Source of the DNA: an uncultured bacterium
Lineage (GTDB): Bacteria; Patescibacteriota; Minisyncoccia; Phycocordibacterales; PALSA-1337
Assembly (NCBI GenBank): GCA_903839725.1
Contig: CAIMDG010000002.1
Coordinates: forward strand, 1,078 to 65,077
Direction: 5' to 3'
Length of the DNA stretch: 64,000 nucleotides
Shown: in pieces, positions 3,235-47,562 of the stretch
Layout: every line of letters begins with the position of its first letter
How positions within the stretch are numbered: the first letter of the stretch is position 1
Notes under the pieces: model-generated
What the model saw: only the letters and a program-made list of their open reading frames with translations
Databases searched by the model: none
What the model was told of the DNA's origin: nothing
Program-made: the position numbers and the translations under genes

Positions 3235-4617
3235 TCAATTCCCCGTTGTGGTAATATGCAACTTCCAGCTCTCCAAATTACCTTCAGGACCACCACTGGC
3301 CCAGTCTCTAATCCATAAAAACCATATTCCGTTCGGTGATTTTCCATTAAATATTGATAGGTCATCTACAGGATGATATGTACCCGTAACAGGACTTATC
3401 AGTGGTGAATTTTGAATATTTACTTGGGCTGTATCCGCAAGTGTAACATCAAAACCTGCAATGTTATCGAGCATTTTCAAAACATCTCCATGATCTACAC
3501 CAAACAATCGCTGTCTAAGTGATGCAGGATAAGACCATGCCCCGAATATCACCTGTTGGACCTGATCTGGACTAAATAAAATCGCTTCTAAATCTCCATT
3601 AATACCTCCGTTAATTTTAACATCAACAGTCATATTTGATACAACACCAGATAGTCCGCTGACATTTAATTGATAAACATTGTACCTCCCATTAGGAATG
3701 ATTCCGCCACTAGAACTACTGAATACCATTGGTACCGGGTCTGCAACTGTCACCGTCACACCAAGTGTTTGTGTTTGTGCTGATCCGCCATTTCCAGTGA
3801 CTGTCGCAGTAACATTATATGTACCCGCCGCACTGTATGTATGAGTGAATGTGACTGGAGTTGTAATAGTATTTTGTGTACCTGTTGTTGTATCTCCCCA
3901 ATCGATAGAATACGTGAGCGAATCAGCATTTGGGTTTGAAACAGTTACTACCCATGTACCACCAGTAACAGTGGTAAGTGTACCTGGACCAGTGAAACTG
4001 CTTATTGTGGGTGCCGTAACAAACGTTTCTCCTGGATACCCATCACCAGAATATGATGAATAATTTGCATCACCGATCGGAATAGTTATAACTGTAGGAT
4101 TGTCTAGCGGATTAAGTGACTTGAGTTCACTTACATAATCAAAAGAAGCAGTTGGGGTGATTGCTACAGTAGTATCATTAGCTCCCGGAGTTACACCTGT
4201 CGAAGGTGCAGTTACGTAGGTGTATTCAAGACCACTTGTATTGATCATGTCGACAGGGATATGAGAGATGTATCCACCATCTACGAGAGGTTTGAGGACA
4301 CCTAGACCTAAATCAGGAACACCGTTTGCATTTGTAATACCTCTACATACAAATGAAGTTGTTCCGCTGATGATTTGAGGAGTACAACCTGCTACATTTT
4401 GCGCACCTGCTGGAACACCACCATGATCATTTGCGTATAAAGCCAACGCATTACGAACCTGAAGCGCATTTGAATTTCGCACAGAATCACGACCACTTGC
4501 TTGAGCAGCTCTAACTCCCACCAAAATCACTGAGGCAAGTGAGGCGATGATCGAGATGACGACCATGATTTCGATGAGGGTGAATCCTTTATTTTTGTAA
4601 TCTATAGCATGAATCAT
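3235..4617 (-). CDS. Type IV pilin-like protein with PKD-like repeat and C-terminal proprotein-convertase P-domain-like region
   Basis: N-terminal prepilin cleavage/methylation motif KGFTLIEIMVVISIIASLA. YSIDWGDTTTG PKD-like signature. C-terminal ...GDLEAILFSPDQV...GIWFLWIRDW...NLESWKLHI resembles a P-domain. Confidence 0.8.
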   Translation of the reverse strand: MIHAIDYKNKGFTLIEIMVVISIIASLASVILVGVRAAQASGRDSVRNSNALQVRNALALYANDHGGVPAGAQNVAGCTPQIISGTTSFVCRGITNANGVPDLGLGVLKPLVDGGYISHIPVDMINTSGLEYTYVTAPSTGVTPGANDTTVAITPTASFDYVSELKSLNPLDNPTVITIPIGDANYSSYSGDGYPGETFVTAPTISSFTGPGTLTTVTGGTWVVTVSNPNADSLTYSIDWGDTTTGTQNTITTPVTFTHTYSAAGTYNVTATVTGNGGSAQTQTLGVTVTVADPVPMVFSSSSGGIIPNGRYNVYQLNVSGLSGVVSNMTVDVKINGGINGDLEAILFSPDQVQQVIFGAWSYPASLRQRLFGVDHGDVLKMLDNIAGFDVTLADTAQVNIQNSPLISPVTGTYHPVDDLSIFNGKSPNGIWFLWIRDWASGGPEGNLESWKLHITTTGN

Positions 4618-4655
4618 ATGGTTTTATATATAAACCCGTACAACAAATGTGTTTC

Positions 4656-6170
4656 TTAACGTACACATCGAGCATATCTCAAATTATATTTATCATATGT
4701 TTCTATTTGTGGTGAACAACTAGTGGTTGAGAGCATCGGTACTCCATTTGCCCCCATAGACCACGATTTAGAACATGCCCATGCAAAACCACTTCTTCCT
4801 GAAAATTCTTCACTCGTCCAATACGGTGCAGTTTGTGTTGCTGATAACATTTTTGGTTGTACCAATGAGCCATCTTGCAGACCAGTCTGAAGCTCAGCTC
4901 GTGTAGGTAAATGCCATCCCGTCGTACCTCCACTACTTACACCAAAATTTGGGTCCGAACAAGTGCTTAAAGCATAATTCCATGAAGCAGAATTATACTG
5001 ACTAAAATCATATATAGACCACTTCGGTGCAAAGTACGCAACAACTGTTCGTGGAACACTCATGTCAACAACACACGTAGGATTGGTACCGGAAGAAGCA
5101 CAGTCACCTGCCCATCCATCAAAGAGACTAGCGTATGATGTTGATGCTGTAAGAGTAACTGATCCTGAGATTGTCGCCGAACAAGGATACTTGGATCCAA
5201 AAGAACCACTATTTTGACAATTGATACCACCGACCGAACTCGTAATAGTTCCGCCACCACCAAGTGATGAATAAGCTCCAGGACCTGGGAAACTAGGTAA
5301 ACCTGTCGTACTCACAGTAAGTAATTGTGTAACCGGCGCCGTCACAACTGTCTGCGTTGAAGCTGAAATCTGAGAATTAGACCCTGTCAAAGTCACGACA
5401 ATAGTGTAAGTACCCGCAGCTGCATATGCATGATAGGCATCAAACTTTGTACTTGATGATATAAGAAGATCACTTGTTGAATCTCCCCAATCATACGAAT
5501 ATGTCAGTGTAATCCCTGCTGGATTACGAACACTTGCAGTCCATGTTCCAGAAACACCAGACAAGATGGTAGAAGGTCCAGTAAAACCAGTGATTCCTGG
5601 TTGGATAACAATATTCGCAATTGGATATCCTCCATTTGGATACAATGCGGTGTTTTCTTCACCAATATATGTTGGAACAATCACAGGATCAGTAACCGGA
5701 TCAGCAGACTTGAACTCACTAACATAGTTGAATTCAGCTGTTGGTGTGATTGCTACAGTTGTACCGTTAGCTCCTGGGGTTACACCTGTTGTTGGTGCAG
5801 TTACGTAGGTATATTCAAGGCCATTGGTATTGATCATGTCGACAGGAATATGAGAGATGTATCCACCATCTACGAGAGGTTTGAGAACACCTGATTCCAA
5901 ATCACCTTTACATACATATGAAGTTGTTCCACCGATAGTCTGAGCATTACAACCTGCTACACCAGCACCTGATGGTACACCGCCATGGTCTGTTGCATAC
6001 AAAGCGAGTGCATTACGTACTTGCAAAGCACTTGATTGACGTGCAGAATCACGACCACTTGCTTGAGCAGCTCTGACTCCCACCAAAATCACTGAGGCAA
6101 GTGAGGCAATAATCGAGATAACAACCATAATTTCGATGAGGGTGAATCCGGTACGTAATGTGTGCTTCAT
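4656..6170 (-). CDS. Type IV pilin-like protein paralog with PKD-like repeat and C-terminal DUF1566/Lcl-like domain
   Basis: N-terminus TGFTLIEIMVVISIIASLASVILVGVRAAQASGRD is nearly identical to the neighbouring gene for about 165 aa. YSYDWGDSTS PKD-like. C-terminal WHLPTRAELQTGLQDGS...YWTSEEF is DUF1566-like. Confidence 0.8.
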   Translation of the reverse strand: MKHTLRTGFTLIEIMVVISIIASLASVILVGVRAAQASGRDSARQSSALQVRNALALYATDHGGVPSGAGVAGCNAQTIGGTTSYVCKGDLESGVLKPLVDGGYISHIPVDMINTNGLEYTYVTAPTTGVTPGANGTTVAITPTAEFNYVSEFKSADPVTDPVIVPTYIGEENTALYPNGGYPIANIVIQPGITGFTGPSTILSGVSGTWTASVRNPAGITLTYSYDWGDSTSDLLISSSTKFDAYHAYAAAGTYTIVVTLTGSNSQISASTQTVVTAPVTQLLTVSTTGLPSFPGPGAYSSLGGGGTITSSVGGINCQNSGSFGSKYPCSATISGSVTLTASTSYASLFDGWAGDCASSGTNPTCVVDMSVPRTVVAYFAPKWSIYDFSQYNSASWNYALSTCSDPNFGVSSGGTTGWHLPTRAELQTGLQDGSLVQPKMLSATQTAPYWTSEEFSGRSGFAWACSKSWSMGANGVPMLSTTSCSPQIETYDKYNLRYARCVR

Positions 6171-6201: not shown

Positions 6202-6405
6202 TTATACATTCAAGAATGACCAAATTTCACGCATAAACATAATATTGTATATAGCAAGAATAAGACATCCGACAATTATGACAAAAAGAAGGAGTATCGC
6301 TTCCCATTCTTTCTTAACAAAACCTCTTTCGAGTAACCAGGTTATAATTCGAGGAGGTGTACTACTGGGAGTGAAGCGGCCATACAGTATGTGTTTGTGT
6401 TTCAT
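6202..6405 (-). CDS. Small hypothetical membrane protein
   Basis: 67-aa ORF with one hydrophobic helix, ending 32 nt upstream of the pilin gene start, in an AT-rich region. Weak support. Confidence 0.25.
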   Translation of the reverse strand: MKHKHILYGRFTPSSTPPRIITWLLERGFVKKEWEAILLLFVIIVGCLILAIYNIMFMREIWSFLNV

Positions 6406-8729: not shown

Positions 8730-9581
8730 ATGGAACCAAAACCAACCAATCCACTCGTAAATCTTCCTGGTGCAATCATCATCGCTGCAGCCATCATTGC
8801 AATCGCCATCATCTGGGCAAAGCAACCTATTCCAAAACCAGTTGTTGCCGAACCTGCTGCCACAAATAAAAACATTGTCACTCTTTCACCGGTCAAAACT
8901 ACTGAACATGTTCTCGGCAATCCAGCAGCAGCTATTGTATTTGTTGAATTCTCGGACCCATCATGCCCATACTGCAAAAACTTTAACCCAACAATGGAGG
9001 ACGTTATAACAAAATATGGAGCAACGGGAGATGTTGCATGGGTCTATCGCCATTATCCACTTGATAAACCTGATGCAAATGGAAATGTTCTTCATGCCAA
9101 CTCAGGACAACAAGCAGAAGCACTCGAGTGTTCTGCATCACTCGGTGGTAATGCAAAATTCTGGGAATTTGAAAAAGCATGGTATGCATCTATCCCTCTC
9201 GATGGTGCTGGAAGATCAAGTACAGTAGACAAACAAGAGATTCTCAAAGTTGCAAAAAATGTTGGTCTCGACACTGTTGCTTTCAACGACTGTATCGCAA
9301 ACAATCGCTTCAAAGATGTTATTGATGCAAACTTCCTTGATGGTGTAAATGCAGGGGTTAATGGTACACCTTCAAGTTTCCTTGTTCTCAGTAAGCCAGC
9401 TGGTGCTTTTGTCGAAAAGTTCATCTCAAGTGCTACACTCCAATATCGTTTGAGTGCCGATCTACTCACACTGAGTGGTGACAAAAAAATTATCTCTATG
9501 AATGGAGCAATGCCTGCACCACTCGTTAAAAGTTTGATAGAAGCAATTCTTACAGAAAGAAAGGCTTCTGTTACTCAGTAA
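8730..9581 (+). CDS. Membrane-anchored DsbA-family thiol:disulfide oxidoreductase
   Basis: N-terminal TM helix, then FVEFSDPSCPYCKNF (thioredoxin-fold CxxC active site). DsbA-like length. Confidence 0.7.
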   Translation: MEPKPTNPLVNLPGAIIIAAAIIAIAIIWAKQPIPKPVVAEPAATNKNIVTLSPVKTTEHVLGNPAAAIVFVEFSDPSCPYCKNFNPTMEDVITKYGATGDVAWVYRHYPLDKPDANGNVLHANSGQQAEALECSASLGGNAKFWEFEKAWYASIPLDGAGRSSTVDKQEILKVAKNVGLDTVAFNDCIANNRFKDVIDANFLDGVNAGVNGTPSSFLVLSKPAGAFVEKFISSATLQYRLSADLLTLSGDKKIISMNGAMPAPLVKSLIEAILTERKASVTQ

Positions 9582-16270: not shown

Positions 16271-17125
16271 CTATTTAACAGCGATCGTGTGAGTCGGGAG
16301 ACCTTCGGCGTAAAGTTTTTGAACTTCAGAAGCAGTTAAGGTACTTCTGTATATCCTGAAAGTATCGAGATTGCCAACTATAGAACCATAGTAGTTGGGC
16401 CAAGAACAAGCTACAGCTATAGCTGTTATATTATTTACAGTACTCGAGATATCAATTATGGTTGGTCCAGATATTGCTACACCATCAACATATAAAGTAT
16501 TAGCTTTTGTTGTGTTGTTATAGTCCCATGTAATGTTATGCCATGTATTGATATCAGAACATGCAGGAGTTGGAATATCAAAGATTGTATTACTACTGAT
16601 TTTACCCAAGAACCTACCACCTAAACACGACAGATAACTAAAACTATTAACGCTGTTGAAGTTTACAGCAAACTCTTGAGGAGAGGGCCCAGAAACTGCT
16701 TGATTATTAATCCAGTAAGTAATTGTAAAACCATTTTGCGCCGTGCCCATAAGTGAGTCCTGTGGAAAAGATGCAAGAGTATAAGCATATGCTGTCGCAG
16801 TTGATTTTAAGGAAGAACCGTGACCATTGGGGGTATTTGTAGTATCAATTGAAATACTCGAGCCAGAAAAAGTCAAATTATAATTATTACCAGAGCTATC
16901 TAATCCGGGGTTCGAAGCACTATCAAACTGATAATCTACAAATTCATCTACACCTAATTTGTGGTGATTATGATCAGCAAAATTCAACCCTGCAGCAACT
17001 CGTGCTTTGGATTTTGCAGTACTTAATGCCGCCAAAACAACACTACTCAACAACCCAATAATAGAAATAACCACCAGAAGCTCAATGAGAGTAAATCCTT
17101 TTCTTTTTAAATGCAAAAGACCCAT
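16271..17125 (-). CDS. Type IV pilin-like protein (prepilin N-terminal domain plus lectin/LamG-like C-terminal region)
   Basis: KGFTLIELLVVISIIGLLSSVVLAA prepilin cleavage/methylation motif. Asn/Ser/Thr-rich beta-rich C-terminus. Confidence 0.7.
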   Translation of the reverse strand: MGLLHLKRKGFTLIELLVVISIIGLLSSVVLAALSTAKSKARVAAGLNFADHNHHKLGVDEFVDYQFDSASNPGLDSSGNNYNLTFSGSSISIDTTNTPNGHGSSLKSTATAYAYTLASFPQDSLMGTAQNGFTITYWINNQAVSGPSPQEFAVNFNSVNSFSYLSCLGGRFLGKISSNTIFDIPTPACSDINTWHNITWDYNNTTKANTLYVDGVAISGPTIIDISSTVNNITAIAVACSWPNYYGSIVGNLDTFRIYRSTLTASEVQKLYAEGLPTHTIAVK

Positions 17126-17149
17126 AGTTAAATTATATCACAATTGAAA

Positions 17150-17794
17150 CTATGGACTTGTTACACAATAGTAATAAAAAGGAGGGCCAAAACTAAAAAT
17201 ACTATCAGAATTATACCTATCAGTGACTGATCCATCAGGTGCTATCTCAGTAACATGCGGTAGACTAAGAGTCGCTGAAGGGCTACCAACATATAACACA
17301 TACAATTTTGAAAATGTTGATACCCCACCGCATCCATATGTATTATTGGCATTCCACCAGGTTCCAAGTCTGTTAAAGAGATCTGTCTCGTATTCAAAAT
17401 AATACTTTGTATTATTTGGATAACCAGGATAATCAACTATTTGAGAAATGAATTTATTTGTTACCAAGGGATTAAGTCCATTCCGAAAAGCAGGGCCCTG
17501 TCCATTAAGTGCGGAAATAGACAAATCATTTATATCAACACCATCTGGGTTTGCTACAGTTTTTTGTAAAGGATACTGTCCAAATTGACTGTAATACAAC
17601 TCCAACGCATTTTGTAATTGTTTGAAAGATGCAATAATCTGAGCATCTTGAGCTCGCTGTCGAGAAACAGAAAGAGAAGCAAAGACAATACTTGTAAGAA
17701 ATCCAACAATAGCAATCACCACCAATAGTTCAATGAGGGTAAATCCCTTGACACCTTCTTTGGATTTATTTTTAAACCTAGAAAAATATTTCAT
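17150..17794 (-). CDS. Type IV pilin-like protein
   Basis: KGFTLIELLVVIAIVGFLTSIVFASL prepilin motif after a short basic leader. Confidence 0.7.
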   Translation of the reverse strand: MKYFSRFKNKSKEGVKGFTLIELLVVIAIVGFLTSIVFASLSVSRQRAQDAQIIASFKQLQNALELYYSQFGQYPLQKTVANPDGVDINDLSISALNGQGPAFRNGLNPLVTNKFISQIVDYPGYPNNTKYYFEYETDLFNRLGTWWNANNTYGCGGVSTFSKLYVLYVGSPSATLSLPHVTEIAPDGSVTDRYNSDSIFSFGPPFYYYCVTSP

Positions 17795-17807
17795 ATATGT
17801 AATTATT

Positions 17808-18092
17808 CTATTGGGAAGATGGTGGTACTTTTAGGAAAAAACCCTTTTGGCTATTTGATTGTTCATTTGGACTTGTAATAGTCATACGATATATAAAAAT
17901 ACTAGCAATGATCAAAACAACCACTATTCCCAGCAATATAAAATTTGCCATCTGTTCTGACTTTACCCCCCTTCTCATCAACCACAAAACCATTGCAGGT
18001 GGTTGGCTACTTCTTTTAAAACTGCCGTAGAAAACACTTCCTCCTCTGCGTGGAGCATCCTGATTATCGCCATCAAAGATAACTTCTGACAT
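17808..18092 (-). CDS. Hypothetical small membrane protein
   Basis: 94-aa ORF with one TM helix, 14 nt upstream of the pilin gene on the same strand. Confidence 0.3.
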   Translation of the reverse strand: MSEVIFDGDNQDAPRRGGSVFYGSFKRSSQPPAMVLWLMRRGVKSEQMANFILLGIVVVLIIASIFIYRMTITSPNEQSNSQKGFFLKVPPSSQ

Positions 18093-34262: not shown

Positions 34263-34985
34263 CTATTTATTTCCAAGAAATACTTGTTCCAACACTTTTT
34301 TTTCAATCAATTCTTTTGGATTACCCTCTGCATATATTTTTCCTTTATCCAATACATATGCTCTTGTAGTTATTTCGAGAAGTGACTTCAAATTGTGTTC
34401 GACGATGAATATGGCCGTCTTTCTGCGTTCATTAATTTCTCTGATTTTCTGGAAAACTTCCTTAACAATCTTTGGTGATAATCCAAGTGATGGTTCATCA
34501 AGCAGAAGTACCTTGGGATCCGTCATGAGTCCTCGGGCGATAGCGAGCATCTGTTGTTGTCCACCAGAGAGAGTACCTGACTTTGCTTTGAGTTTTCCTC
34601 GAAGTGCCGGGAACAATTCAAGTACATTTTCGATTCGCTCCTTACGTTCATTACTACTTTTAACATTAAATCCTCCGATCTCAAGATTTTCAAGGACAGT
34701 AAGGTGGTGAAAAACTCGGCGACCCTGCGGTACGAATGATACACCTCGTTCAACTACCTCATGCGATATAGGTTTGAACTGTTGACCTTCCCAAAAAATA
34801 TGTCCAGAACCAATAGGAGCTAAACCAAATATAGCTTTGAGAATAGTAGATTTTCCAGCACCATTTGGACCCATAAGTGCAACAATTTCTCCTTCATCGA
34901 TGAATACCGATGCTCCATCGAGTGCTTTAACGCCACCGTAATGGACGTGAATATTTTTGAGTTCGAGGAGATTTTTTTGTTTCAT
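34263..34985 (-). CDS. livF: Branched-chain amino acid ABC transporter ATP-binding protein (LivF-like)
   Basis: GPNGAGKST Walker A, LSGGQQQM signature, LLDEPSLGL Walker B. LivF-like length (240 aa). Confidence 0.85.
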   Translation of the reverse strand: MKQKNLLELKNIHVHYGGVKALDGASVFIDEGEIVALMGPNGAGKSTILKAIFGLAPIGSGHIFWEGQQFKPISHEVVERGVSFVPQGRRVFHHLTVLENLEIGGFNVKSSNERKERIENVLELFPALRGKLKAKSGTLSGGQQQMLAIARGLMTDPKVLLLDEPSLGLSPKIVKEVFQKIREINERRKTAIFIVEHNLKSLLEITTRAYVLDKGKIYAEGNPKELIEKKVLEQVFLGNK

Positions 34986-35065
34986 GGACTGAATTACGAT
35001 ACTACTTTATCTAGTAGGCATATTCTACCATGTATACCTGAAATGAGAATATTGTGAACTGAAAC

Positions 35066-36136
35066 CTATTTTTCGAACATTTTGAGATATTGATCTGCCA
35101 TTACTTCACCATTTTTGGTAAATGAATAACTAGACATACCACCAGTTACTCCGCCGAGAAAATATGTCTTGAGTCCAGAAGCAATATTGTTTGTCGAGTG
35201 ACTTTTTGCATATACATCAATGAGTTTGAAAATATCATACGTTACGGAATCATAAAATGGCGACGCAGATTCTATTCCGTACTGTGTTTTGTATACCACC
35301 AAGAAATCTTTGTAAGCTTGAGTTTCTGTAGTAAATCCAGCATCAAAGCAAACTGACTTTAAACCAAATTCTTTTGGTGTAGGTGTATATTCACAGGCAT
35401 TCACATCGCCTATCAGAAGTGGCCTATAATTCAGGACGTCCAATTCCTTGTAAACCAATCCTACTGCTTTGCCACTCGTTGGAACATAAAACAAATTATT
35501 GATGCCTTGCGACTTTAATTTCATGAGTTGTGTGCGGAATGTATTGTCAGTTGCTGAATATGTTTCCTGGCTAATAATTTTTGCACCTAGTTTGTCTTGC
35601 AATGTCATCGCCACGGACTTTGAATAATCTTGCGCTTCATACAAAAGACCAATTTTTGAATCCACTGGTAATTTCAAGGCATAATTTGCCATTGCTCCAG
35701 CGATCGAGAGTGCGTCTGGTATAAATCGGATAACTTCGTCGCCTGTCTTGCGTATTTCAGATGAACCCGCGTATGCGGTGAGAATAAGATTACCACCAGT
35801 TTTTGCAAGTGGTGCCAGGGCCAGAACACTTCCACTGCAACTTACATAGAATACATGAACGTCTTGTTGTGTGAGTTTCAAATATAATGATACAGCTTTC
35901 TTGGTATCACATTGATCATCTTCGAAAATGAGTTGGAATGAAGTCGAACTTGCGAGCTTGATAGAGTTCGCAACTTCCTCGCCAATAAGTCCTGCCGGAC
36001 CACTGAGTGGACCAATTATGCCGATCTTTATTGGCTGATCAATAGAATGGTTTTGCTTTTTAGTAGTGATTACCCAAATAAGAGCCATTATAATAAGAAT
36101 GGAAATTATAATTAGACTAGTGCGAGATGGTTTCAT
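35066..36136 (-). CDS. ABC transporter substrate-binding protein, type I (LivK/Peripla_BP_6-like), membrane-anchored
   Basis: N-terminal TM anchor then IKIGIIGPLSGPAGLIGEEVANSIKLA, the typical start of Leu/Ile/Val-binding-protein family receptors. Confidence 0.75.
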   Translation of the reverse strand: MKPSRTSLIIISILIIMALIWVITTKKQNHSIDQPIKIGIIGPLSGPAGLIGEEVANSIKLASSTSFQLIFEDDQCDTKKAVSLYLKLTQQDVHVFYVSCSGSVLALAPLAKTGGNLILTAYAGSSEIRKTGDEVIRFIPDALSIAGAMANYALKLPVDSKIGLLYEAQDYSKSVAMTLQDKLGAKIISQETYSATDNTFRTQLMKLKSQGINNLFYVPTSGKAVGLVYKELDVLNYRPLLIGDVNACEYTPTPKEFGLKSVCFDAGFTTETQAYKDFLVVYKTQYGIESASPFYDSVTYDIFKLIDVYAKSHSTNNIASGLKTYFLGGVTGGMSSYSFTKNGEVMADQYLKMFEK

Positions 36137-36149
36137 ATATCAAAAATAA

Positions 36150-36902
36150 TTATTCCCCCAAATAAGCTTCAATAACATCCTTCCTCGCCAACACCACACT
36201 TGGTGCACCTTCTGCCAAAAGTTCACCAGAATCTAGAACGTAAATATGATCCGACAATTCACGGATAAGTTCCATATTGTGTTCCACTAGAATGACAGCT
36301 TTACCTTGATCGCGAAGTTCCCTCATGACAGTTACAACCGTTTTGACCATTTCTGGAAAGAGTCCGGCAAATGGTTCATCGAAGAAAATAACATTAATAT
36401 CTCCAACTCCCGAATGAATGATAGCAAGAATACGCGCAATCTCGAGAAGTTTACGTTGTCCATATGAAAGATTTTTAGCGAGTTCACCTCTCTTTTCCCA
36501 GAGACCAACTTTCTTCAACACTTCTTCGGCTTTTTCGAGGTGAAGTTTGCTGTGCTTTTCGAACAATGATTTCCAAATACTTCTTTCGGTGAGTACGACA
36601 AGAATATTGTCGAGGACGAGCATCTGCTCGAATAATCTCACATCTTGGAATGTTCTCGTAATACCAAAGAGTGGTACCTCGTGGGCATTCATTCTCTTGA
36701 GTGTTTCAACACCAGCAATGATTATTTCCCCACCATCCGCAGGAATCATACCTGTCAAAGTGTTGATGAGTGTAGACTTACCCGAACCATTTGGACCGAT
36801 GATGCCCGTAATTTTTCCTGCCTCAAATGAAATCGAAAGTTTGTTAACAGCATGAACGCCGTCGAAGTTTTTGCTTAGTTTGTTGGTGGAGAGGATGGGC
36901 AT
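36150..36902 (-). CDS. livG: Branched-chain amino acid ABC transporter ATP-binding protein (LivG-like)
   Basis: GPNGSGKST Walker A, LSYGQRKLLEIAR signature, IFFDEPFAGL Walker B. Start at ATG 36902 (MPILSTNKLSKNF) to match the LivG N-terminus and avoid overlap. Confidence 0.85.
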   Translation of the reverse strand: MPILSTNKLSKNFDGVHAVNKLSISFEAGKITGIIGPNGSGKSTLINTLTGMIPADGGEIIIAGVETLKRMNAHEVPLFGITRTFQDVRLFEQMLVLDNILVVLTERSIWKSLFEKHSKLHLEKAEEVLKKVGLWEKRGELAKNLSYGQRKLLEIARILAIIHSGVGDINVIFFDEPFAGLFPEMVKTVVTVMRELRDQGKAVILVEHNMELIRELSDHIYVLDSGELLAEGAPSVVLARKDVIEAYLGE

Positions 36903-36916
36903 GTTACACAAATTAC

Positions 36917-38077
36917 CTATTTCAATTCCTGCCACATTTCTTGACCTTTACTGTCAAAATAATGAAGACCAATAGGAACAACAGGATTAACATTCGAGCC
37001 GAGCGTCAATGATCCTGCAGCCCCATTCCAATCCTTAATGGCAGCTAGGTAGTTTTTTATACATACTGTATCTGTTGAACTCTTACATGATTCCATTGCT
37101 TCTTTTACGAGATATACTGCATCATACGAAGTTGCCAAATACGCAATATTTGTTGGAGGTAATTGTTTGTATGCAGTTTTATATGCTTCTATGAATGCAG
37201 CTGTTTTTGAGTTGGCTGAACTTACGAAAGCGTCAGTCGTGAATATGCGAGGATTATTAAGCAATCCACCAGATTGATCATTGATAGCTGCGGACAATGA
37301 TTGTGCACCAGCAATTATTGGATACGTACTGAGCAGACCGAGCTCTTTCATTTGCTTGTAGAATGTAACACTTGCACCCGCACCCTGAGATGCAAATAAT
37401 ATTGCATCTGGCTTTTGTTTATTGATCTTCAATATATATGATCGCAAATCATTTACATCAGAATTGAATGCATCATTCGAAATGACTTGTCCACCCAATT
37501 TCACGAATTCGGCCAAGAATGCTTTGTACACTCCAACTGGAAAATCTTTATTTTCATATAATGCAGCTACTTTTCTATATCCCTGTGAATATGCATACGC
37601 AGCTGACTTGGCAGTATAGAACTCACTCGAAGGAGAATTTCGGAAAATATAACTGCCTGAATTCGTGACTGCAGGTGAAGAAGTAATTGAGGCAATAATG
37701 ACTACTTTGGCTTTTTCTACGATTGGGGCGATAGCGAGAGTCTCGGTACTACAATGTCCACCAAGAATAACATTAACCTTATCTATATTGATCAACTTAT
37801 TTGCAACAGTTGCTGAAGTTGCCCCATCACACTTACCATCTTCAACTATGAGATTCAATTTCTTTCCGAGAATACCTCCGGCTTGATTAATTTCATTCTG
37901 AGCGATCAAAACTGACTGCATTGCTGGTTCTCCGTAACTTGCAGCAGAGCCAGTGAGTGGTGATATAAGACCGATACTAATTTGATTACCCTGATCTTTT
38001 TTGAAGACACCAGAAACCGCAATCACAATAATAATGATAACAATAATCCCCCAAGTTACTTTTTTATTCATGCTCAT
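36917..38077 (-). CDS. ABC transporter substrate-binding protein, type I (LivK-like), membrane-anchored
   Basis: TM anchor then ISIGLISPLTGSAASYGEPAMQSVLIAQNEINQAGGILGKKL. Confidence 0.75.
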   Translation of the reverse strand: MSMNKKVTWGIIVIIIIVIAVSGVFKKDQGNQISIGLISPLTGSAASYGEPAMQSVLIAQNEINQAGGILGKKLNLIVEDGKCDGATSATVANKLINIDKVNVILGGHCSTETLAIAPIVEKAKVVIIASITSSPAVTNSGSYIFRNSPSSEFYTAKSAAYAYSQGYRKVAALYENKDFPVGVYKAFLAEFVKLGGQVISNDAFNSDVNDLRSYILKINKQKPDAILFASQGAGASVTFYKQMKELGLLSTYPIIAGAQSLSAAINDQSGGLLNNPRIFTTDAFVSSANSKTAAFIEAYKTAYKQLPPTNIAYLATSYDAVYLVKEAMESCKSSTDTVCIKNYLAAIKDWNGAAGSLTLGSNVNPVVPIGLHYFDSKGQEMWQELK

Positions 38078-38130
38078 AAATTAGGTTGTAATACCTAAAA
38101 TATACCAAGAATACGATCTTTGAGCTATAG

Positions 38131-39246
38131 CTACCTCCACACCCCTAACACCCCATCTTTCATCACCTGAACCTGTACGTTGATATCTTCAACTGAATGA
38201 TTTGGTGCAAAACTGATCGTACCATTTGGAGTCGTGAACTTTGTTTTGGCGATATAACTAGCAACCTGTGAATTATCAGAACTATGTGCAATAGCTTGTG
38301 CCAAGACGTACGTAGCATCAAAGAATTTATCAACGGACTTTGTAGCCGTCATGTTATAAGCCTTCTGGTACATATCCGCGAATAATTTCGTGGTAACTTC
38401 CCAGTTCAAGATTACAACATTGTTGAGTGGACTCTTGTCAGTCTCATTGGCAAAAGCATCGAGCGCTCCGTTGTATGACATAACGATTGGGGTGAAACCA
38501 AGTTGCTTCGCTTGTTTGAGGAACGTGAGCGGATCATTTCCGACCATGTCGAGGAATACGCCATCCACACCTTTATTCTTTAATTTGATAATTGTAGTTT
38601 TCCAATCATTGTCACCAATCTGTGTATATGGGTTGTCGATAACATCTGCACGACCAAGATCCTTCATGACACCAGCGAGCGTCTTTTCGATTTCAACACC
38701 GAAGCTCGACTGATAATGAACAACAGCCAATTTCTTGATTGTGCTTGAGGCGATGAATGGTTTGATCTTCTGAATTGTCTTGTCGAAGTCTGTAAGCATC
38801 ACGAAACTCTGATCATTCAAGTCAAAGCCACCCGCAATACGGAAGTTCGAAGGAGAAACAAAGGCAATCTTGTCATTCAAGGCAATTGGCAGAATAGGTT
38901 GGGCGGTGAAGTCAAAGACGCCACCAATAACACCGTTTACATGATCGATAGTTACCAGTTTGTTAAAAGCTGAAACTGCCAACTTACCGTCAGTGTGATC
39001 ATCTTCGAAAATGACTTCAACTTTTCTACCGTTGATTCCACCTGCGTCATTGATATTCTTTACTGCCAAGTTAATACCATTCTTGCCATATTCACCCCAA
39101 GGTGCAGCGAAACCTGACAAAGATAATACAGCCCCAATCTTTATTGGATTATTACTTTGTGGCTTTTGACTAGGTCTTGAAACAGAAACACCGATAATCA
39201 CAATGATAATAATAGCGACGACGGTCCATATAATTTTTTTATTCAT
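38131..39246 (-). CDS. ABC transporter substrate-binding protein, type I (LivK-like), membrane-anchored
   Basis: Start at ATG 39246 (MNKKIIW...). IKIGAVLSLSGFAAPWGEYGKNGINLAVKNINDAGGINGRKVEV. Confidence 0.75.
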   Translation of the reverse strand: MNKKIIWTVVAIIIIVIIGVSVSRPSQKPQSNNPIKIGAVLSLSGFAAPWGEYGKNGINLAVKNINDAGGINGRKVEVIFEDDHTDGKLAVSAFNKLVTIDHVNGVIGGVFDFTAQPILPIALNDKIAFVSPSNFRIAGGFDLNDQSFVMLTDFDKTIQKIKPFIASSTIKKLAVVHYQSSFGVEIEKTLAGVMKDLGRADVIDNPYTQIGDNDWKTTIIKLKNKGVDGVFLDMVGNDPLTFLKQAKQLGFTPIVMSYNGALDAFANETDKSPLNNVVILNWEVTTKLFADMYQKAYNMTATKSVDKFFDATYVLAQAIAHSSDNSQVASYIAKTKFTTPNGTISFAPNHSVEDINVQVQVMKDGVLGVWR

Positions 39247-39342
39247 ATATTTTAGGTACATTAAAAGCCGCTTGTGGCGACTTGCACATAGTATATACTC
39301 GTGATATATTATGTCCATAATTCGGCGAAAAGCGAATACTAT

Positions 39343-40107
39343 ATGAATACAAGCTTTCTAGATATATTCAATTTAGGAGACACGTCCAAGGAGGTGCTTC
39401 TTGATATCATCGCCCATGGCGTTTCCTCTGTGGCTGTTATTGCCCGTCGCCTCGGTATGCCAAAGTCGACTGTATATGACGCCATTACCCCCCTTTTGGA
39501 CCAGAGTTTGGTGAATGAATACAGCAATAACCACGGTAAAACCTTTGGTATCTCCGACAATGAACAGCTCAAGCGTGCCCACGAAGAAAAGATCAATGAG
39601 CTCAAAAAGGCCCAGTCTTCCCTGCTCTCATTCATCGGTACACATAACCAAAAAGAAAGTTCAGTTTCTCCGAAGGTAAAATTCTATGCGGGTAATCTGG
39701 GTATCAAGCAGGCGTTCCGCGATATGATGTGGGAAAAGAACATCACCGAAACGTATCTTTTTTGGCCAGCCAAAGAGATGCTCGATATCGACGAAGACTT
39801 CTTCAAATGGCACGGTACTCAGCGTTTCAAATATGGTGTTTACATATATGCGATCGAGACATACAAGGACCGTATCATTCAACGCAATGCGAAACAGAAA
39901 TGGATGCACAATACCAAAGATAGTTTGTCTGAAGCTCGCTATCTACCAAAAGGTGTAAATTGCAAAATGAGTTTCTGGATTTATGGTGACAAATGTCTCT
40001 TTGCTTCTGGCGGTAAAGAAAAGATTGCGTTTGCAGTTCACAGCAAAGAATTCTCGTCCCTGATGAAACTCCTCTGGAAAAATATGTGGGAGAATGCGGA
40101 GAAATAA
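39343..40107 (+). CDS. TrmB-family transcriptional regulator
   Basis: N-terminal HTH LGDTSKEVLLDIIAHGVSSVAVIARRLGMPKSTVYDAITPLLDQSLV plus about 170-aa TrmB-type C-terminal domain. Divergent from the SBP gene at 39246. Confidence 0.7.
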   Translation: MNTSFLDIFNLGDTSKEVLLDIIAHGVSSVAVIARRLGMPKSTVYDAITPLLDQSLVNEYSNNHGKTFGISDNEQLKRAHEEKINELKKAQSSLLSFIGTHNQKESSVSPKVKFYAGNLGIKQAFRDMMWEKNITETYLFWPAKEMLDIDEDFFKWHGTQRFKYGVYIYAIETYKDRIIQRNAKQKWMHNTKDSLSEARYLPKGVNCKMSFWIYGDKCLFASGGKEKIAFAVHSKEFSSLMKLLWKNMWENAEK

Positions 40108-40136
40108 AAAACACCGAATGATCGGTGTTTTTTATT
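40106..40136. terminator. Bidirectional hairpin terminator
   Basis: aaaaaacaccgaatgatcggtgttttttattttt. Confidence 0.7.
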
Positions 40137-40137
40137 T

Positions 40138-41217
40138 TTAATTCGGCAACTTTCCTCCCTCAATCGTTCCAATCTTTAATTCTGGAATGCGCACACCATT
40201 TTCATCAAACACAATCTTTCCATCAGCCCCGACGAGGGTGACATGCTTCATATTGTTCACCCATGTAGCCTTATCTGAATTGTAACTTTGAGCTAGAAGC
40301 ATAAAAGCATTGTAACCAGTCTCTGAACCGATCGCCGGTTCGACACCATACATTTTCTTGTAAGCCTCATTGAACGTACTGCGGTACACGTTTGGAACGG
40401 TATAGAGAATACTTCCATTTAACACATTCATATTTCCGAGCACTTTCGCATAGTCACCAAATCCTGTTTGGATATTTGCGTCGAATACATACCGATATTT
40501 TGTGTGTGAGATTGAACCGAGCTCCTTTGCAAGAAGTCCGCCAGAAGTTGGTTTGACGATAAACACGATTACGTCTGGCTTGAATGAGATCGCTTTCAAA
40601 GCACTTGATTTGATATCCCGACCATCAGCTGAAACTTGGATTTCGTTGTATGGCATAGCAAATCCTTTTTCAAAACCTTGAGCAAAACGTTCAAAAGCCG
40701 AAGATCCTTTGTCGACAAACACAACGGCATTCTTGAATCCTTTACCAGCAACGTATTTACCAAGCTCAACTTCAGCTGGCACACTTCCTGGCCACAACTG
40801 AACAATGTTGTCATTCGCCGCTTCAATTCCTTGTTCAAAACCGAGAGCAACTGGCATACCAGTCTGCACAACGTCTCCATAGATCGAATCAATTGTAACC
40901 GTTGTCATGTTAATGAGACCATCAACATGATCAATACTTACAAGTTTCTTGTAGGCCGAAAGTCCTTTCTTGGAATCAAAACTGTCATCTTCAGTTATAA
41001 GCGAAATCTGTTGATTTATATGTGAACTATTCCATTCAGCCTGAGCGAGCTTTGCACCTTTGGCAAAACTATCACCGACAGCGGCATAATCACCGGTCAT
41101 TCCAGCAATCATGCCAAATGTGAGCTGTGTGGTTGGTTTCTTCGTATTAAACAAACCAATCATCACAATAACTAGAATTACCACAACTAGGCCTGAAATT
41201 TGATATTTTTTATTCAT
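40138..41217 (-). CDS. ABC transporter substrate-binding protein, type I (LivK-like), membrane-anchored
   Basis: Start ATG 41217 (MNKKYQISGL...). LTFGMIAGMTGDYAAVGDSFAKGAKLAQAEWN. Confidence 0.75.
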   Translation of the reverse strand: MNKKYQISGLVVVILVIVMIGLFNTKKPTTQLTFGMIAGMTGDYAAVGDSFAKGAKLAQAEWNSSHINQQISLITEDDSFDSKKGLSAYKKLVSIDHVDGLINMTTVTIDSIYGDVVQTGMPVALGFEQGIEAANDNIVQLWPGSVPAEVELGKYVAGKGFKNAVVFVDKGSSAFERFAQGFEKGFAMPYNEIQVSADGRDIKSSALKAISFKPDVIVFIVKPTSGGLLAKELGSISHTKYRYVFDANIQTGFGDYAKVLGNMNVLNGSILYTVPNVYRSTFNEAYKKMYGVEPAIGSETGYNAFMLLAQSYNSDKATWVNNMKHVTLVGADGKIVFDENGVRIPELKIGTIEGGKLPN

Positions 41218-41387
41218 ATAATGTGATTTATTTGTAACAATATTAGTATACATATATCAAATATAATCAAGAAATAAATCATAACTTTGAATATATACAT
41301 GAATTATATCCATATGTATCAATCCATATCTAAATATTAGTATGTCAGGAATATTGACACTTTCATACATAATGCTAGAATCTACAC

Positions 41388-42203
41388 ATGAAAATCAAAC
41401 AAAGTTCAATCATAGACCTCCTACAGCTCAGCAAAAAAGAGCAGGTCATTTTCAACCTACTCAACAATGAATCATCCACACCTGTATCACTAGCCAAGAA
41501 ATGCTCTATCCCCCGCCCTACCATATATATCACTCTCGAAAAGCTCCACAACCGTGGCTTAATCATAAAAAAGAAAATCTCACACAAAACCTACTGGCAA
41601 AAGAATTCTGATGATGAAATCGAGAGTCTCGCCTACCGATTCAAGGAGTTGCTTTCAGCAAGTAGTGCTACAAAGCAAGAAAAGATTTCCATCACTGATT
41701 CTTCACAGGTCGTTGTTCATCGTGGACAAAAAGCTATCTTCAAACTATTCTCCAGTCTAGTTGACGAACACGCTGGTGAAAAGATGATCGCACTTCAGGG
41801 AAATCTTGCAGGATATGCGTGGAGTAAGTTATTTAACGTGCAAGAAATTAACATCATCAACCAGAAGATTAAGAAAAATAAAGTTATTACGGAACTTGTT
41901 ACTTCTAGGGAGTGGTTCAAGAGTCAAACTGAACTCTTTGGTACAGGTTGGGCCAAAAACTTTGAAGGTAGAACGATTCGTATGCAGGATGTTGGGAACC
42001 AGTACTTGAATTACGCTAGTCAGATATTTATTTTCAGAGACAAAGTATATATTGACGCAATGTCGGATAAAGTCTTCATCGAAATAAAGAACCCAGAGAT
42101 TGCGAAGCTGCTGGTTTCAATTACGCAGTTTGTTCAAGATCATTCGGAGGTGTTGGATGCGAATAAACTTCTCAGAGAACTGATCAGTAACAATTCAAAA
42201 TAG
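41388..42203 (+). CDS. TrmB-family transcriptional regulator
   Basis: HTH LSKKEQVIFNLLNNESSTPVSLAKKCSIPRPTIYITLEKLHNRGLI plus TrmB C-terminal domain. Confidence 0.7.
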   Translation: MKIKQSSIIDLLQLSKKEQVIFNLLNNESSTPVSLAKKCSIPRPTIYITLEKLHNRGLIIKKKISHKTYWQKNSDDEIESLAYRFKELLSASSATKQEKISITDSSQVVVHRGQKAIFKLFSSLVDEHAGEKMIALQGNLAGYAWSKLFNVQEINIINQKIKKNKVITELVTSREWFKSQTELFGTGWAKNFEGRTIRMQDVGNQYLNYASQIFIFRDKVYIDAMSDKVFIEIKNPEIAKLLVSITQFVQDHSEVLDANKLLRELISNNSK

Positions 42204-43070
42204 TTATAACCTATACTCCCCAACCAAACCCTGTGGCCTATACAACATCAACAGTATCAATATAACACCATACACCACTTGACGCATTTGCGCTGCAATG
42301 TCATCTGGAAAACCGACGAAGCGCAGGACTTCCGGCAAAAGGATGAGACATATTGCCCCGATAACTGCACCCTTGTTATTCGCCATACCACCCAAGATAA
42401 CCACAGCCAGAATGAAGATGGATTCCGTCAAAGTGAAACTCGATGGATCGATAAATGTAATGTACGAAGCAAAAAGTGAGCCTGCCACTGCCGCCATTCC
42501 TGCCGAGACAACGAAGATGGCGAGCTTGTACCAGAGAACGCGGTAACCAAAGACTTGAATAGCTTTTTCATCTTCACGGATAGCCTTGAGCACACGACCA
42601 AACGATGAATTCGTAATGTAGTGACAAACACCAAAAACAATCAGAGCACAGACAACCGCAAGAACAAGGAACCAACTATTTTCAGAGAAAGTAAAACCGA
42701 ATATGCTTGGGCGAGGAATTCCAGGAATACCGAGCGGACCACGTGTGAGCGACTGCCAATTCAAGAAAATACTATAAATGATGACGTTGAAACCAAATGA
42801 ACCCAGTGCATAATAATCATCTTTGAATTTTGAAAGCACAAAACCTATCGCTAGACTCAACACTGCGGTAATGATAATACTGAAAAGCATAGCGAGAAAG
42901 AAATTCATGCCAACTGAAGTAAGCAGGATTGCTGTCACATATGCACCAATACCATAGAATGCTGCTTGAGTAATACTGAGCAGACCTGTGAATCCTACAA
43001 TCAAGTTCAAAGAAAGACCGAGAATGGCGTAGATCGAGATCAGGATGGCAATGTGTATGAGATATTCCAT
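42204..43070 (-). CDS. livM: Branched-chain amino acid ABC transporter permease (LivM-like)
   Basis: Eight or more TM helices. GIPGIPRP and EAAFYGIGAY-type motifs of the LivM family. Confidence 0.8.
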   Translation of the reverse strand: MEYLIHIAILISIYAILGLSLNLIVGFTGLLSITQAAFYGIGAYVTAILLTSVGMNFFLAMLFSIIITAVLSLAIGFVLSKFKDDYYALGSFGFNVIIYSIFLNWQSLTRGPLGIPGIPRPSIFGFTFSENSWFLVLAVVCALIVFGVCHYITNSSFGRVLKAIREDEKAIQVFGYRVLWYKLAIFVVSAGMAAVAGSLFASYITFIDPSSFTLTESIFILAVVILGGMANNKGAVIGAICLILLPEVLRFVGFPDDIAAQMRQVVYGVILILLMLYRPQGLVGEYRL

Positions 43071-43071
43071 A

Positions 43072-43938
43072 TTATTTCTTTAATATTCCCTGTGGTCTAA
43101 ACAACAAAAAAATAATCAATACTCCGAAGGCAATCGCATCTTTCCATTCACCGGAAATCTGCCAGATACCAAAGTTCTCGATAAAGCCGAGGAGGAATGC
43201 ACCGAGTACACCGCCATATACATTGCCGATACCACCGATGATACACGCAATCACACCTTTCAAGAGAAGTGACAATCCCATCGTTGGTTCTATACCAGTA
43301 TCAAAGCCAACGAGAATACCAGCGAGACCGGCGATCGCTGAGCCTATAAAAAATGTCCATCCGATAACTCTAACAGTATTGATACCAACGATCTTCGAAA
43401 CTTCCTCATCATCCCCCACTGCTTTGATAGCTTTACCGAACAATGTGTACCTGAACATGAGACCAATACCAACCATGATGAGAATTCCGAGAATGAGAAT
43501 GATAAGTTGTGTCTGCGTGATCACTCCGCCAAAAACGGTATATACCATTTCACTACCCGCATTTTTCGAAAGTGTCTGGAATTGACTCGTAAATAAAATA
43601 GCAATAATAGCCTGTAATGCTGTCATCACTCCGAGAGCAGCAACCAGAAGAACCATGCTTGATGATTTGCGAGTACGTAGTGGTGCGTATACAAAATGAT
43701 ATATAAGTACCCCAATAGTTCCTGCAATGAGAATACCGAGAGCAACAGAAACGAATATATCTAAACCGAGTATTTTATAGAAGAAGAAAACAGTATATCC
43801 ACCAACCGCCGCAAGAGCACCGTATCCCAAATCAAAGAATTTAGCTGTACCGTAAATCAGATTGAAACCGAGAGCGACCATGGCATATATCGCTCCAGCA
43901 ATGATTGAGTTGACGATGAGTTGAGGGATGATGTCCAT
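43072..43938 (-). CDS. livH: Branched-chain amino acid ABC transporter permease (LivH-like)
   Basis: Polytopic membrane protein. GYGALAAVGGY and EPTMGLSLLLKG motifs of the LivH family. 1-nt gap to livM. Confidence 0.8.
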   Translation of the reverse strand: MDIIPQLIVNSIIAGAIYAMVALGFNLIYGTAKFFDLGYGALAAVGGYTVFFFYKILGLDIFVSVALGILIAGTIGVLIYHFVYAPLRTRKSSSMVLLVAALGVMTALQAIIAILFTSQFQTLSKNAGSEMVYTVFGGVITQTQLIILILGILIMVGIGLMFRYTLFGKAIKAVGDDEEVSKIVGINTVRVIGWTFFIGSAIAGLAGILVGFDTGIEPTMGLSLLLKGVIACIIGGIGNVYGGVLGAFLLGFIENFGIWQISGEWKDAIAFGVLIIFLLFRPQGILKK

Positions 43939-44160
43939 GAATGTATGTAATACAGCTAAGTATACCCATTAAATAGGTACTTGAAAATAGACCATTATTT
44001 GATATCCTAAAGACTGAAAGGACCTCTATGAAATACGATCGACCAACGTGCACCTCAGCAACAACAACTCGGCCACCCATTTCGGCGAATTTTTCACCGC
44101 CACCCGCGGAACCCCGCCCGAAACCGGCTGCCAAACCGAAAAAGTAGGGACCGAAGCTGC

Positions 44161-44194
44161 ACAACAAAAGCCCACGAACTTGTTCGTGGGCTTT
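44161..44194 (-). terminator. Rho-independent terminator after the SBP gene
   Basis: 11-bp stem agcccacgaac/gttcgtgggct followed, on the minus strand, by ttttgttgtg. Confidence 0.65.
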
Positions 44195-44220
44195 CATACT
44201 AATACAATTAACTAATCAAC

Positions 44221-45333: not shown

Positions 45334-45390
45334 AATAAAGAATAATTACAAATAATATGTCAATTATAGTTGATACTCCCATTTCTGCAA

Positions 45391-45422
45391 CAACAAAAAA
45401 CCACCCTCTCGAGTGGTTTTTT
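45391..45422. terminator. Hairpin terminator (sequence duplicated at 47512)
   Basis: caacaaaaaaccaccctctcgagtggtttttt. The identical 32-mer recurs at 47512-47543. Confidence 0.7.
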
Positions 45423-45437
45423 ACTGTTCAAATTAAC

Positions 45438-46538: not shown

Positions 46539-46714
46539 ATATACATATTATTAGTAGTAATATGTATCCTTAATATCATTACCCCAAAACTTGTTTATAT
46601 CTTTAGAAGAGTAGCTAAATATATATTCATATTTAAAGCCATATTTTGATATAAAATTTAATAGTGTGCGTCCATAGTGACAAAATCTGTATATGTGATA
46701 ACATATATATCATT

Positions 46715-47509: not shown

Positions 47510-47511
47510 CC

Positions 47512-47545
47512 CAACAAAAAACCACCCTCTCGAGTGGTTTTTTGT
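47512..47545. terminator. Hairpin terminator (duplicate of 45391)
   Basis: caacaaaaaaccaccctctcgagtggttttttgt. Confidence 0.7.
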
Positions 47546-47562
47546 TCTACGACTTTTACCTT

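Follow-up and report, generated by a model that had tools for sequence, protein, structure and literature searches.

How the ultrasmall bacteria of the candidate phyla radiation (CPR) recognize and attach to their hosts is largely unknown beyond a few cultivated Saccharibacteria, and two neighbouring genes of an uncultivated, probably host-dependent, Paceibacteria-like bacterium (assembly GCA_903839725.1, contig CAIMDG010000002.1) raise the question of whether type IV pilins of this lineage carry domains that bind such targets. The stretch analyzed, referred to here as the window, comprises 64,000 nucleotides (nt), and positions are counted from its first letter. Gene 2 (4656..6170, minus strand; 504 amino acids (aa)) and gene 1 (3235..4617, minus strand; 460 aa) are co-oriented, with gene 2 upstream and a gap of 38 nt between them. 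On the basis of open reading frames (ORFs) and of Pfam and NCBIfam matches, complemented for gene 2 by an AlphaFold model, the encoded proteins consist of (i) a pilin module, a linker, a PKD domain and a P-domain head in gene 1; and (ii) a pilin module, a linker, a PKD domain, an InlB-B-repeat-like module and a DUF1566/Lcl-like head in gene 2. BLASTP aligns them over about 308 residues with 59% identity (E 7e-110). Both thus join a pilin module and a linker to domains that are not specific to pilus biology, and we regard it as close to certain that they are modular type IV pilins. The first-pass annotation of this DNA, which had reported the coordinates, strand and lengths of the two ORFs exactly, had likewise taken them for type IV pilin-family proteins with non-pilin C-terminal modules, which the profile hidden Markov models (HMMs) and prepilin motifs described below bear out for both genes; its label "giant" is too strong, as modular pilins of up to 860 aa have been catalogued (PMC8179133).

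An identical copy of the gene 2 protein is encoded on 16 contigs and one of the gene 1 protein on 15, and the identical gene pair recurs with synteny retained in several samples (15 contigs or more), which, judged by their labels alone, suggest an origin in stratified freshwater metagenomes. Population variants of both proteins show single-residue differences, which carry no further information. Scans for promoters (12 found, 11.5 expected) and terminators (2 found, 2.3 expected) around the pair remained at background, and because of this we infer an operon from the 38-nt gap alone. The RpoB protein encoded in the window is 86–89% identical to proteins assigned to Candidatus Paceibacterota, Parcubacteria, Minisyncoccia or the Patescibacteria group, so that assignment of the organism to the CPR is sound.

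Both proteins start with a class III signal peptide. The leader peptides, MIHAIDYKNKG in gene 1 (residues 1–11; 4585..4617, minus strand) and MKHTLRTG in gene 2 (residues 1–8; 6147..6170, minus strand; cleavage predicted after Gly8), end with glycine and are followed by phenylalanine at position +1, glutamate at position +5 and about 20 hydrophobic residues. The prepilin motifs read KNKG/FTLIEIMVV and LRTG/FTLIEIMVV, respectively, where the slash denotes the predicted cleavage site; the features just listed are seen in KNKG/FTLIEIMVVISIIASLASVILVG and in the stretch that begins LRTG/FTLIE. Among the signatures of type IV pilins (IPR012902), the N_methyl profile (PF07963) matches gene 1 with 30.8 bits and gene 2 with 21.8 bits (gathering threshold (GA) 21.2), and TIGR02532 matches them with 30.8 and 26.9 bits (cutoff 16.3); with both profiles above their cutoffs in both proteins, the canonical prepilin cleavage motif noticed earlier is confirmed. 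Glu5 is kept in both proteins, as it is in Streptococcus sanguinis PilB.

The leader is followed by a pilin module made up of an alpha-1 helix and a globular domain, which was delimited in gene 2 by hhalign and profile matches (residues 9–153; 5712..6146, minus strand; Cys74–Cys87) and in gene 1 by identity to gene 2, synonymous divergence (dS) and hhalign (residues 12–165; 4123..4584, minus strand; Cys78–Cys91). Over gene 1 residues 12–165 the two proteins are 85–86% identical, their DNA is 84% identical, and a single 8-residue indel separates them; the approximately 165 shared N-terminal residues that had been described are therefore strongly conserved, but "nearly identical" overstates their likeness. 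An hhalign comparison of the family's pilin modules with ordinary small CPR pilins, namely the 150–200-aa pilins of a canonical Patescibacteria pilus locus (L003, with PilB-PilT-PilC-pilin-PilD and about eight small pilins), gave a probability of 99.7% (E 4e-25, columns 6–134), and the match takes in the globular part, the Cys pair and a Y-I-S-x-I-P-x-D motif. Furthermore, the N-terminal profile of the family matches solved pilins and pseudopilins (geopilin, PilE, PilA, GspG) with E values down to 5e-8. The AlphaFold model of gene 2 contains a long alpha-1 helix at residues 11–62; the globular domain is identified by the hhalign comparison, the predicted local distance difference test (pLDDT) of the model being 25–40 in that part.

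A linker joins the pilin module to the PKD domain. As delimited by the family alignment, it comprises residues 166–200 in gene 1 (4018..4122, minus strand) and residues 154–188, with a conserved GYP motif, in gene 2 (5607..5711, minus strand), and the two linkers share 34% protein and 54% DNA identity. The PKD domains (PF00801 / PF18911) of gene 1 (residues ~201–290; 3748..4017, minus strand) and gene 2 (residues ~189–280; 5331..5606, minus strand) exceed the cutoffs, with 30.5 bits for PKD (GA 23.5) and 29.9 bits for PKD_4 (GA 27) in gene 1, and 27.8 bits for PKD_4 (GA 27) in gene 2. This region of the AlphaFold model is confident (pLDDT 83–91), and Foldseek relates it to solved PKD domains, which have an Ig-like beta-sandwich (4xed, TMt 0.71; 1l0q; 1wgo). 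The PKD-like module that the two genes had been said to share is thus the same kind of domain in both, although the likeness is old rather than close (39–45% protein and 54% DNA identity).

Beyond the PKD domain the two proteins differ. The head of gene 1 (residues ~291–460, folded core ~297–458; 3238..3747, minus strand) is a P-domain with an insertion of about 20 residues. Pfam P_proprotein (PF01483) matches with 27.6 bits (GA 21), covering only profile positions 55–86 of 86, and an exhaustive phmmer search with residues 290–460 retrieved 1,533 proteins at E<=1e-3, many of which cover positions ~10–170 of the 171-residue query. An alignment of the head alone spans the whole P-domain, interrupted by the one insertion of ~20 residues, and its profile matches the P-domain of furin and, with an E value of 2.8e-8, that of Aeromonas sobria serine protease. 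When the head was folded alone from this alignment, the predicted structure was the jelly-roll beta-sandwich of the furin/Kex2 P-domain, so that sequence (Pfam, phmmer and profile) and predicted fold agree with the P-domain-like sandwich that had been proposed. The I-x-H-x3-D-L motif reads INGGINGDL in gene 1, with another residue in place of the near-invariant His. Relatives of this P-domain are mostly repeated modules in very large proteins (median about 1,600 aa for the top 149), and a prepilin signal was found at the start of none of the 149 best. Because an S8 subtilase catalytic domain is encoded neither in gene 1 nor in the neighbouring genes, we consider the head a stand-alone P-domain module and not part of a convertase; no other obvious partner gene adjoins the pair either. 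Identification of gene 1 as a proprotein convertase was rejected, since its P-domain is not C-terminal to any subtilase domain. The classical context, which contrasts with this pilin-borne, stand-alone copy, is seen in a Limnocylindrales metagenome-assembled genome (L030, 9002–11056), where a subtilase is followed by a P-domain, 31% identical to the gene 1 head, and then by Ig-like repeats.

In gene 2, the PKD domain and the head are separated by a module that was missing from the first-pass description. Its residues ~281–385 (5016..5330, minus strand), which include four Cys, align to the PF18998 regions of the related proteins P0002, P0004 and P0007, in which the family match has E values of 1e-8 to 1e-9; gene 2 itself has no direct Pfam match here, and we therefore speak of a B-repeat-like module, taking IPR044060 to be the InterPro entry of the B-repeat family. 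AlphaFold models this module with a pLDDT of 60–84, and outside it and the PKD domain the full-length model of gene 2 is poor. The remaining residues, ~386–504 (4659..5015, minus strand), form the head, for which the Lcl_C HMM and sequence motifs point to DUF1566. The Lcl_C match covers profile positions 20–117 of 117 with an E value of 9.1e-8 and stays below the gathering score. Lcl_C is the best C-terminal family in five of the six related heads, all of them below threshold (scores of related heads: 34.5, 23.2, 19.7 and 18.1 bits). The hallmark motifs of DUF1566, G-W-x-L-P-x3-E-L and Y-W-[ST]-[SD], are present in gene 2 as TTGWHLPTRAEL and APYWTSEEF (YWTS), are kept in all six related heads, and align with the same motifs in 4eps. 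As the HMM match is a near miss accompanied by the motifs, and the fold lacks a confident model, our assignment is a sequence-based one: it supports a divergent DUF1566-like head, as a member or a relative of that family. With regard to the DUF1566/Lcl-like head that had been proposed, HMM and motifs thus speak in its favour, whereas the model (pLDDT 41–69) did not confirm the fold.

The base common to gene 1 and gene 2 defines a narrow family, with only 12 relatives, all metagenomic, found among 5.8 billion clustered proteins. All members agree in layout as far as a PKD domain, which follows pilin module and linker, and diverge beyond it. A scan of GTDB representatives with a profile of the family alignment revealed no close relative of the base among the matches listed, which were generic pilin N-termini. 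In viral contigs scanned with the family, matches were restricted to the local PKD region, and a phage-borne family was rejected on this ground. The P-domain head was found in gene 1 only. A B-repeat followed by DUF1566 is present in gene 2, P0002 and P0007; DUF1566 follows directly, or after a second PKD domain, in P0006, P0008 and P0011; B-repeat arrays are present in P0005 and P0010, and a long beta-rich insert with a B-repeat in P0009; the C-terminal regions of P0004 (a Cys-containing domain) and P0012 (repeat-rich) were not assigned to a family. Because P0008 sits on the window's own contig of 378,307 bp, the genome holds at least three paralogues. The prediction that further paralogues with the same N-terminal base and other heads would exist is thus borne out, by P0008 on this contig and by others of P0002–P0012 in relatives. 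The TruB-TypA locus, which in this genome is occupied by gene 2 and gene 1, contains P0002 alone in one relative (L087) and P0004 with P0009 in another (L089), and the FtsH locus, occupied here by P0008, contains P0010 and P0007 in a relative (L088). These two positions act as hotspots at which the sets of heads differ between relatives.

Nei-Gojobori estimates of dS and dN/dS were computed for each module. Between the orthologues gene 2 and P0002, dS is even across modules (pilin 0.70, linker 0.68, PKD 0.61), while between the adjacent paralogues gene 1 and gene 2 it is 0.53 for the pilin module, 1.30 for the linker and 1.27 for the PKD domain. Given a dS of 0.53 as opposed to ~1.3, the common ancestor of the two pilin modules is far younger than that of the rest of the genes; it is also younger than the split from the relative that carries P0002. 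This indicates gene conversion or module exchange between gene 1 and gene 2 with a boundary near residue 165. Protein identity is likewise a mosaic: the pilin module of gene 1 is closest to that of gene 2, whereas its PKD domain has its nearest counterparts in P0004 and P0005 (46–47%, compared with 39% for gene 2). Purifying selection on the pilin module is strong (dN/dS ~0.1–0.17), and the linker and PKD domain evolve faster (dN/dS ~0.35–0.45).

From the domain families and from precedents, we consider it probable that the gene 1 and gene 2 products are pilus-displayed binding subunits; that they are located specifically at the pilus tip, as had been suggested, is a possibility that we put forward only tentatively. 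Prepilin peptidase would cleave the precursors after Gly8 (gene 2) or Gly11 (gene 1), and the PilB/PilC machinery would then polymerize the pilin module, as a minor subunit of low abundance, into a type IV pilus, either at its tip or thinly scattered over its shaft. Together, the linker (about 35 residues) and the PKD spacer would keep the head at a distance of several nanometres from the fibre, in a position to bind a ligand on a host cell or a surface, and the differing heads would probably give the pilus a choice of targets; for the DUF1566-like head, the best guess for this ligand is a carbohydrate, by analogy with Lcl. The homogenized carrier would keep the paralogues compatible with one fibre and one machinery while their heads diversify.

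Several observations weigh against this interpretation. No PilB, PilC, PilD, PilT or PilM was detected in the window, within 10 kb of either of its ends, or at the P0008 locus, in a search that covered about 105 kb of the 378-kb contig and included a scan of the fetched loci of this organism for the Walker motifs of PilB/PilT. The globular part of the pilin module is predicted by AlphaFold with low confidence. The Lcl_C match (PF07603; gene 2 residues 393–504) scores 32.8 bits, about 2 bits under the GA of 34.9; the DUF1566-like head is poorly modelled, and a search with its profile found no solved structure that is significant by sequence. Moreover, the charge of this head is balanced (8 K+R, 8 D+E), while the glycan-binding face of Lcl is basic. 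As for the head of gene 1, the P-domain of proteases has a stabilizing rather than a binding role, and we know of no ligand on record for any stand-alone bacterial P-domain. With respect to the machinery, pilus components are conserved across 56 Patescibacteria classes (PMC12206443) and Paceibacteria carry pilBCDMT clusters (PMC9763046); since such surveys report it in most Patescibacteria classes, the pilus machinery is likely encoded elsewhere in this genome.

Three other explanations have to be weighed against display as a binding subunit. The pair may encode major (structural) pilins, in which case subunits of 45–50 kDa would build a thick "bottle-brush" filament covered with PKD domains and heads. 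Strong conservation of the pilin module (at the dN/dS given above) and retention of Glu5 together with a complete globular domain are what a repeatedly polymerizing subunit would show, and experiments have yet to identify a major pilin in this lineage; however, the same contig encodes pilins of conventional size (214 and 202 aa), at least three paralogues carry different heads, subunits with grafted modules are low-abundance minor pilins in characterized systems (PMC8179133; PMC12206443), and we would expect an appendage of about 300 residues on every subunit to be sterically difficult. We accordingly rate a structural role as quite improbable.

Class III signal peptides also occur on non-pilus proteins, such as the sugar-binding proteins of the Sulfolobus bindosome, and the signal peptide and helix of gene 1 and gene 2 could similarly act as an anchor only, holding a surface protein in the membrane, or in a short pseudopilus- or bindosome-like assembly, so that its binding domains are exposed on the cell. 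The pair does lie among housekeeping genes (TypA, TruB, HisS, a DsbA-like protein, an AddA-like helicase, RpoD, DnaG and RpoBC) and not beside pilus machinery, yet CPR pilin genes are often found apart from the machinery, as in TM7x, where they occupy four loci (PMC12206443), and a mere anchor would not need the whole globular pilin domain, which is retained here as the most conserved part; we think this explanation unlikely, if a little less so than a structural role. Alternatively, the heads could be displayed on a pilus for purposes other than host adhesion, be it the capture of nutrients or polymers, the docking of a secreted partner (for instance, a subtilase without a P-domain of its own) or kin aggregation. 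Neither a subtilase nor any other obvious partner gene adjoins the pair, and PilX2, the one CPR pilin with a C-terminal module that has been tested, affects host binding (PMC12206443); a non-adhesive role is, in our estimation, the least probable of the three.

A second pilin pair (16271–17794, minus strand) sits between rpoC and dnaG. It consists of (i) a type IV pilin of conventional size with a different base (17150..17794, minus strand; 214 aa; N_methyl, TIGR02532 and a GspG-like N-terminus), a candidate major or partner pilin; and (ii) a modular pilin of 284 aa whose additional module is a concanavalin-A-like lectin (16271..17125, minus strand; N_methyl 33.1 bits; Laminin_G_3 41.6 bits, GA 27.6). 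Both pairs are preceded by a gene for a small membrane protein: an ORF of 67 aa lies directly upstream of gene 2 (6202..6405, minus strand), and a 94-aa homologue upstream of the second pair (17808..18092, minus strand; tblastn 42% over 48 aa, E 1e-6). In total, tblastn located a small predicted single-pass membrane protein (65–103 aa) directly upstream at all seven examined pilin genes or operons of the lineage, i.e., those of gene 2, the 214-aa pilin, P0008, P0002, P0010, P0007 and P0012; the copies outside the window are at L001 9768–10001, L087 3–197, L088 4018–4182 and 5443–5637, and L090 9786–9929. These proteins have an N-terminal motif, K-H-I-L-Y-G-R-F-x5-P-P-[KR]-I-x2-W, followed further on by KKE and then a transmembrane helix. 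They belong to no Pfam or NCBIfam family and were not detected at more distant CPR pilus loci, and they may represent a lineage-specific pilin accessory or regulatory factor.

The third paralogue, P0008 (L001 10001–11620; 539 aa), has the same base followed by two PKD-like modules and a DUF1566-like head. Its neighbours (L001 8135–8743 and 12529–20337) include FtsH and the 202-aa pilin, and genes downstream of it encode two large proteins without annotation (915 and 972 aa) and a VWA-domain protein of 491 aa, which might be additional components for adhesion or of the surface. At 2.5 kb from the gene 1/gene 2 pair, the window encodes a DsbA-like protein with a thioredoxin fold and a membrane segment at its N-terminus (8730–9581, plus strand), which could form the disulphides of the Cys-containing modules (pilin, B-repeat and DUF1566). 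The DNA directly upstream of window position 1 (L085 2779–8969) holds, in this organism, a tandem pair of cassettes, each composed of proteins of 87–94 aa, 125 aa and 675–878 aa, the last being an fn3-repeat protein; two relatives have a single copy (L087 5801–8846 and L089 6956–10301). The large proteins match only the fn3 region of CbhB, the small ones are without a family, and none are Pam pilus components; the cassettes may form another surface structure. Further along the window (34263–49653), seven paralogous Peripla_BP_6 solute-binding proteins (356–395 aa) are interleaved with four TrmB-like regulators and components of an ATP-binding cassette transporter of the branched-chain-amino-acid type; expansion of a single substrate-binding family to this size is unusual for a small genome.

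In an uncultivated Paceibacteria-like lineage, the gene 1/gene 2 pair thus provides testable candidates for the ligand-binding end of a pilus, and the heads, as small and independently folding domains, are amenable to expression and to screening against glycans or candidate hosts. Different heads at the same loci, combined with a homogenized base, are the pattern expected if the modules track host or substrate specificity. Taken further, the family might constitute a host-range cassette system of an episymbiont, in which one carrier, kept uniform by gene conversion, is recombined at the pilin/linker boundary with interchangeable heads at two hotspots, each preceded by its dedicated small membrane-protein gene. 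We consider a system of this kind rather unlikely; if it existed, close Paceibacteria would differ mainly in the ligands that their pili recognize, by a logic comparable to pilin variation or to the swapping of tail fibres in phages, and what determines host specificity in CPR bacteria would have been identified.

The concept of modular pilins is already established: a survey by Raynaud et al. (2021, PMC8179133) described more than 1,200 such proteins in 264 architectures, many from CPR phyla, and considered them likely to be exposed at the tip, without excluding the shaft (PMC8179133). Because of this, the pair extends a known class rather than founding a new one. The accessible part of Dataset S1 of that survey contains seven pilin-DUF1566 entries plus two with two copies, three pilin-PKD entries, and eight pilin-IPR044060 entries plus two with two copies, and has no entry for the P-domain accession IPR002884 (PMC8179133). 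The best-characterized counterparts, PilB (vWA) and PilC (ConA-like lectin) of S. sanguinis, are pilus-displayed adhesins (PMC8179133) that resemble gene 1 and gene 2 in their build, with a grafted module joined by a short linker to a pilin module that has a class III signal and Glu5 (PMC8179133; PMC9934059), and both organisms have a monoderm-type envelope. The 284-aa pilin of the second pair even has the same architecture as S. sanguinis PilC (PMC8179133). Unlike PilB and PilC, however, gene 1 and gene 2 carry an additional two or three modules one after another (a PKD spacer, a B-repeat in gene 2 only, and a head), lie outside a pil operon, and share their base with paralogues whose heads are exchanged.

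Within the CPR, the closest precedent is TM7x (Nanosynbacter lyticus), whose minor pilins PilX1 and PilX2 have a beta-jelly-roll and a beta-propeller C-terminal domain, respectively, and in which deletion of pilX2 reduced host binding from 10.6% to 4.6% (PMC12206443). Like the proteins described here, these are CPR pilins with expanded C-terminal domains encoded at scattered loci, and the extra domain of PilX1 is, as in gene 1, a jelly roll; conversely, TM7x belongs to the Saccharimonadia and not to a Paceibacteria-like lineage, the heads found here are a P-domain and DUF1566, genetics are available for TM7x, and no sequence relationship was detected beyond the pilin N-terminus, the family search having returned the 12 relatives only. 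Pam pili (bioRxiv 10.64898/2026.03.03.709456) are also CPR-specific surface filaments, and the PKD region has a weak local match to PamR; Pam pilins, though, lack the class III signal peptide that gene 1 and gene 2 have, and are assembled by donor-strand exchange. CPR_pilus_PamR (NF058578) was rejected as an assignment, with 26–30 bits against a cutoff of 300 over about 50 residues of the PKD region.

Outside the CPR, a carrier with a variable effector module displayed on a type IV pilus is also found in the PilY1/PilC tip adhesins and in CofB of enterotoxigenic Escherichia coli (PMC8179133), but PilY1, which is not itself a pilin, is defined by a beta-propeller that is absent here, and CofB, a minor pilin of type IVb, has undefined beta-domains and forms a trimer at the tip. 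The DUF1566 domain of Legionella pneumophila Lcl is a glycan-binding, C-type-lectin-like adhesin domain (PMC11162425). In both Lcl and gene 2, it stands at the distal end of a stalk, a collagen triple helix in the former and pilin module, PKD domain and B-repeat in the latter; Lcl's C-terminal domain, however, has no disulphides, is a trimer and has a basic face, whereas the gene 2 head has four Cys, no net positive charge and a score below the Pfam cutoff. The P-domains of furin, Kex2 and A. sobria ASP are attached to subtilases, while that of gene 1, with its replaced His, its insertion of ~20 residues and no subtilase, resembles as a stand-alone module the repeated P-domains of giant bacterial surface proteins. 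Set against the modular-pilin concept (PMC8179133) and the PilX1/PilX2 precedents (PMC12206443), what this locus adds is modestly new: (i) the P-domain as a pilin module; (ii) a layout in which a multi-module spacer precedes the head; (iii) a lineage-specific carrier family with head exchange and carrier homogenization; and (iv) a conserved small upstream gene.

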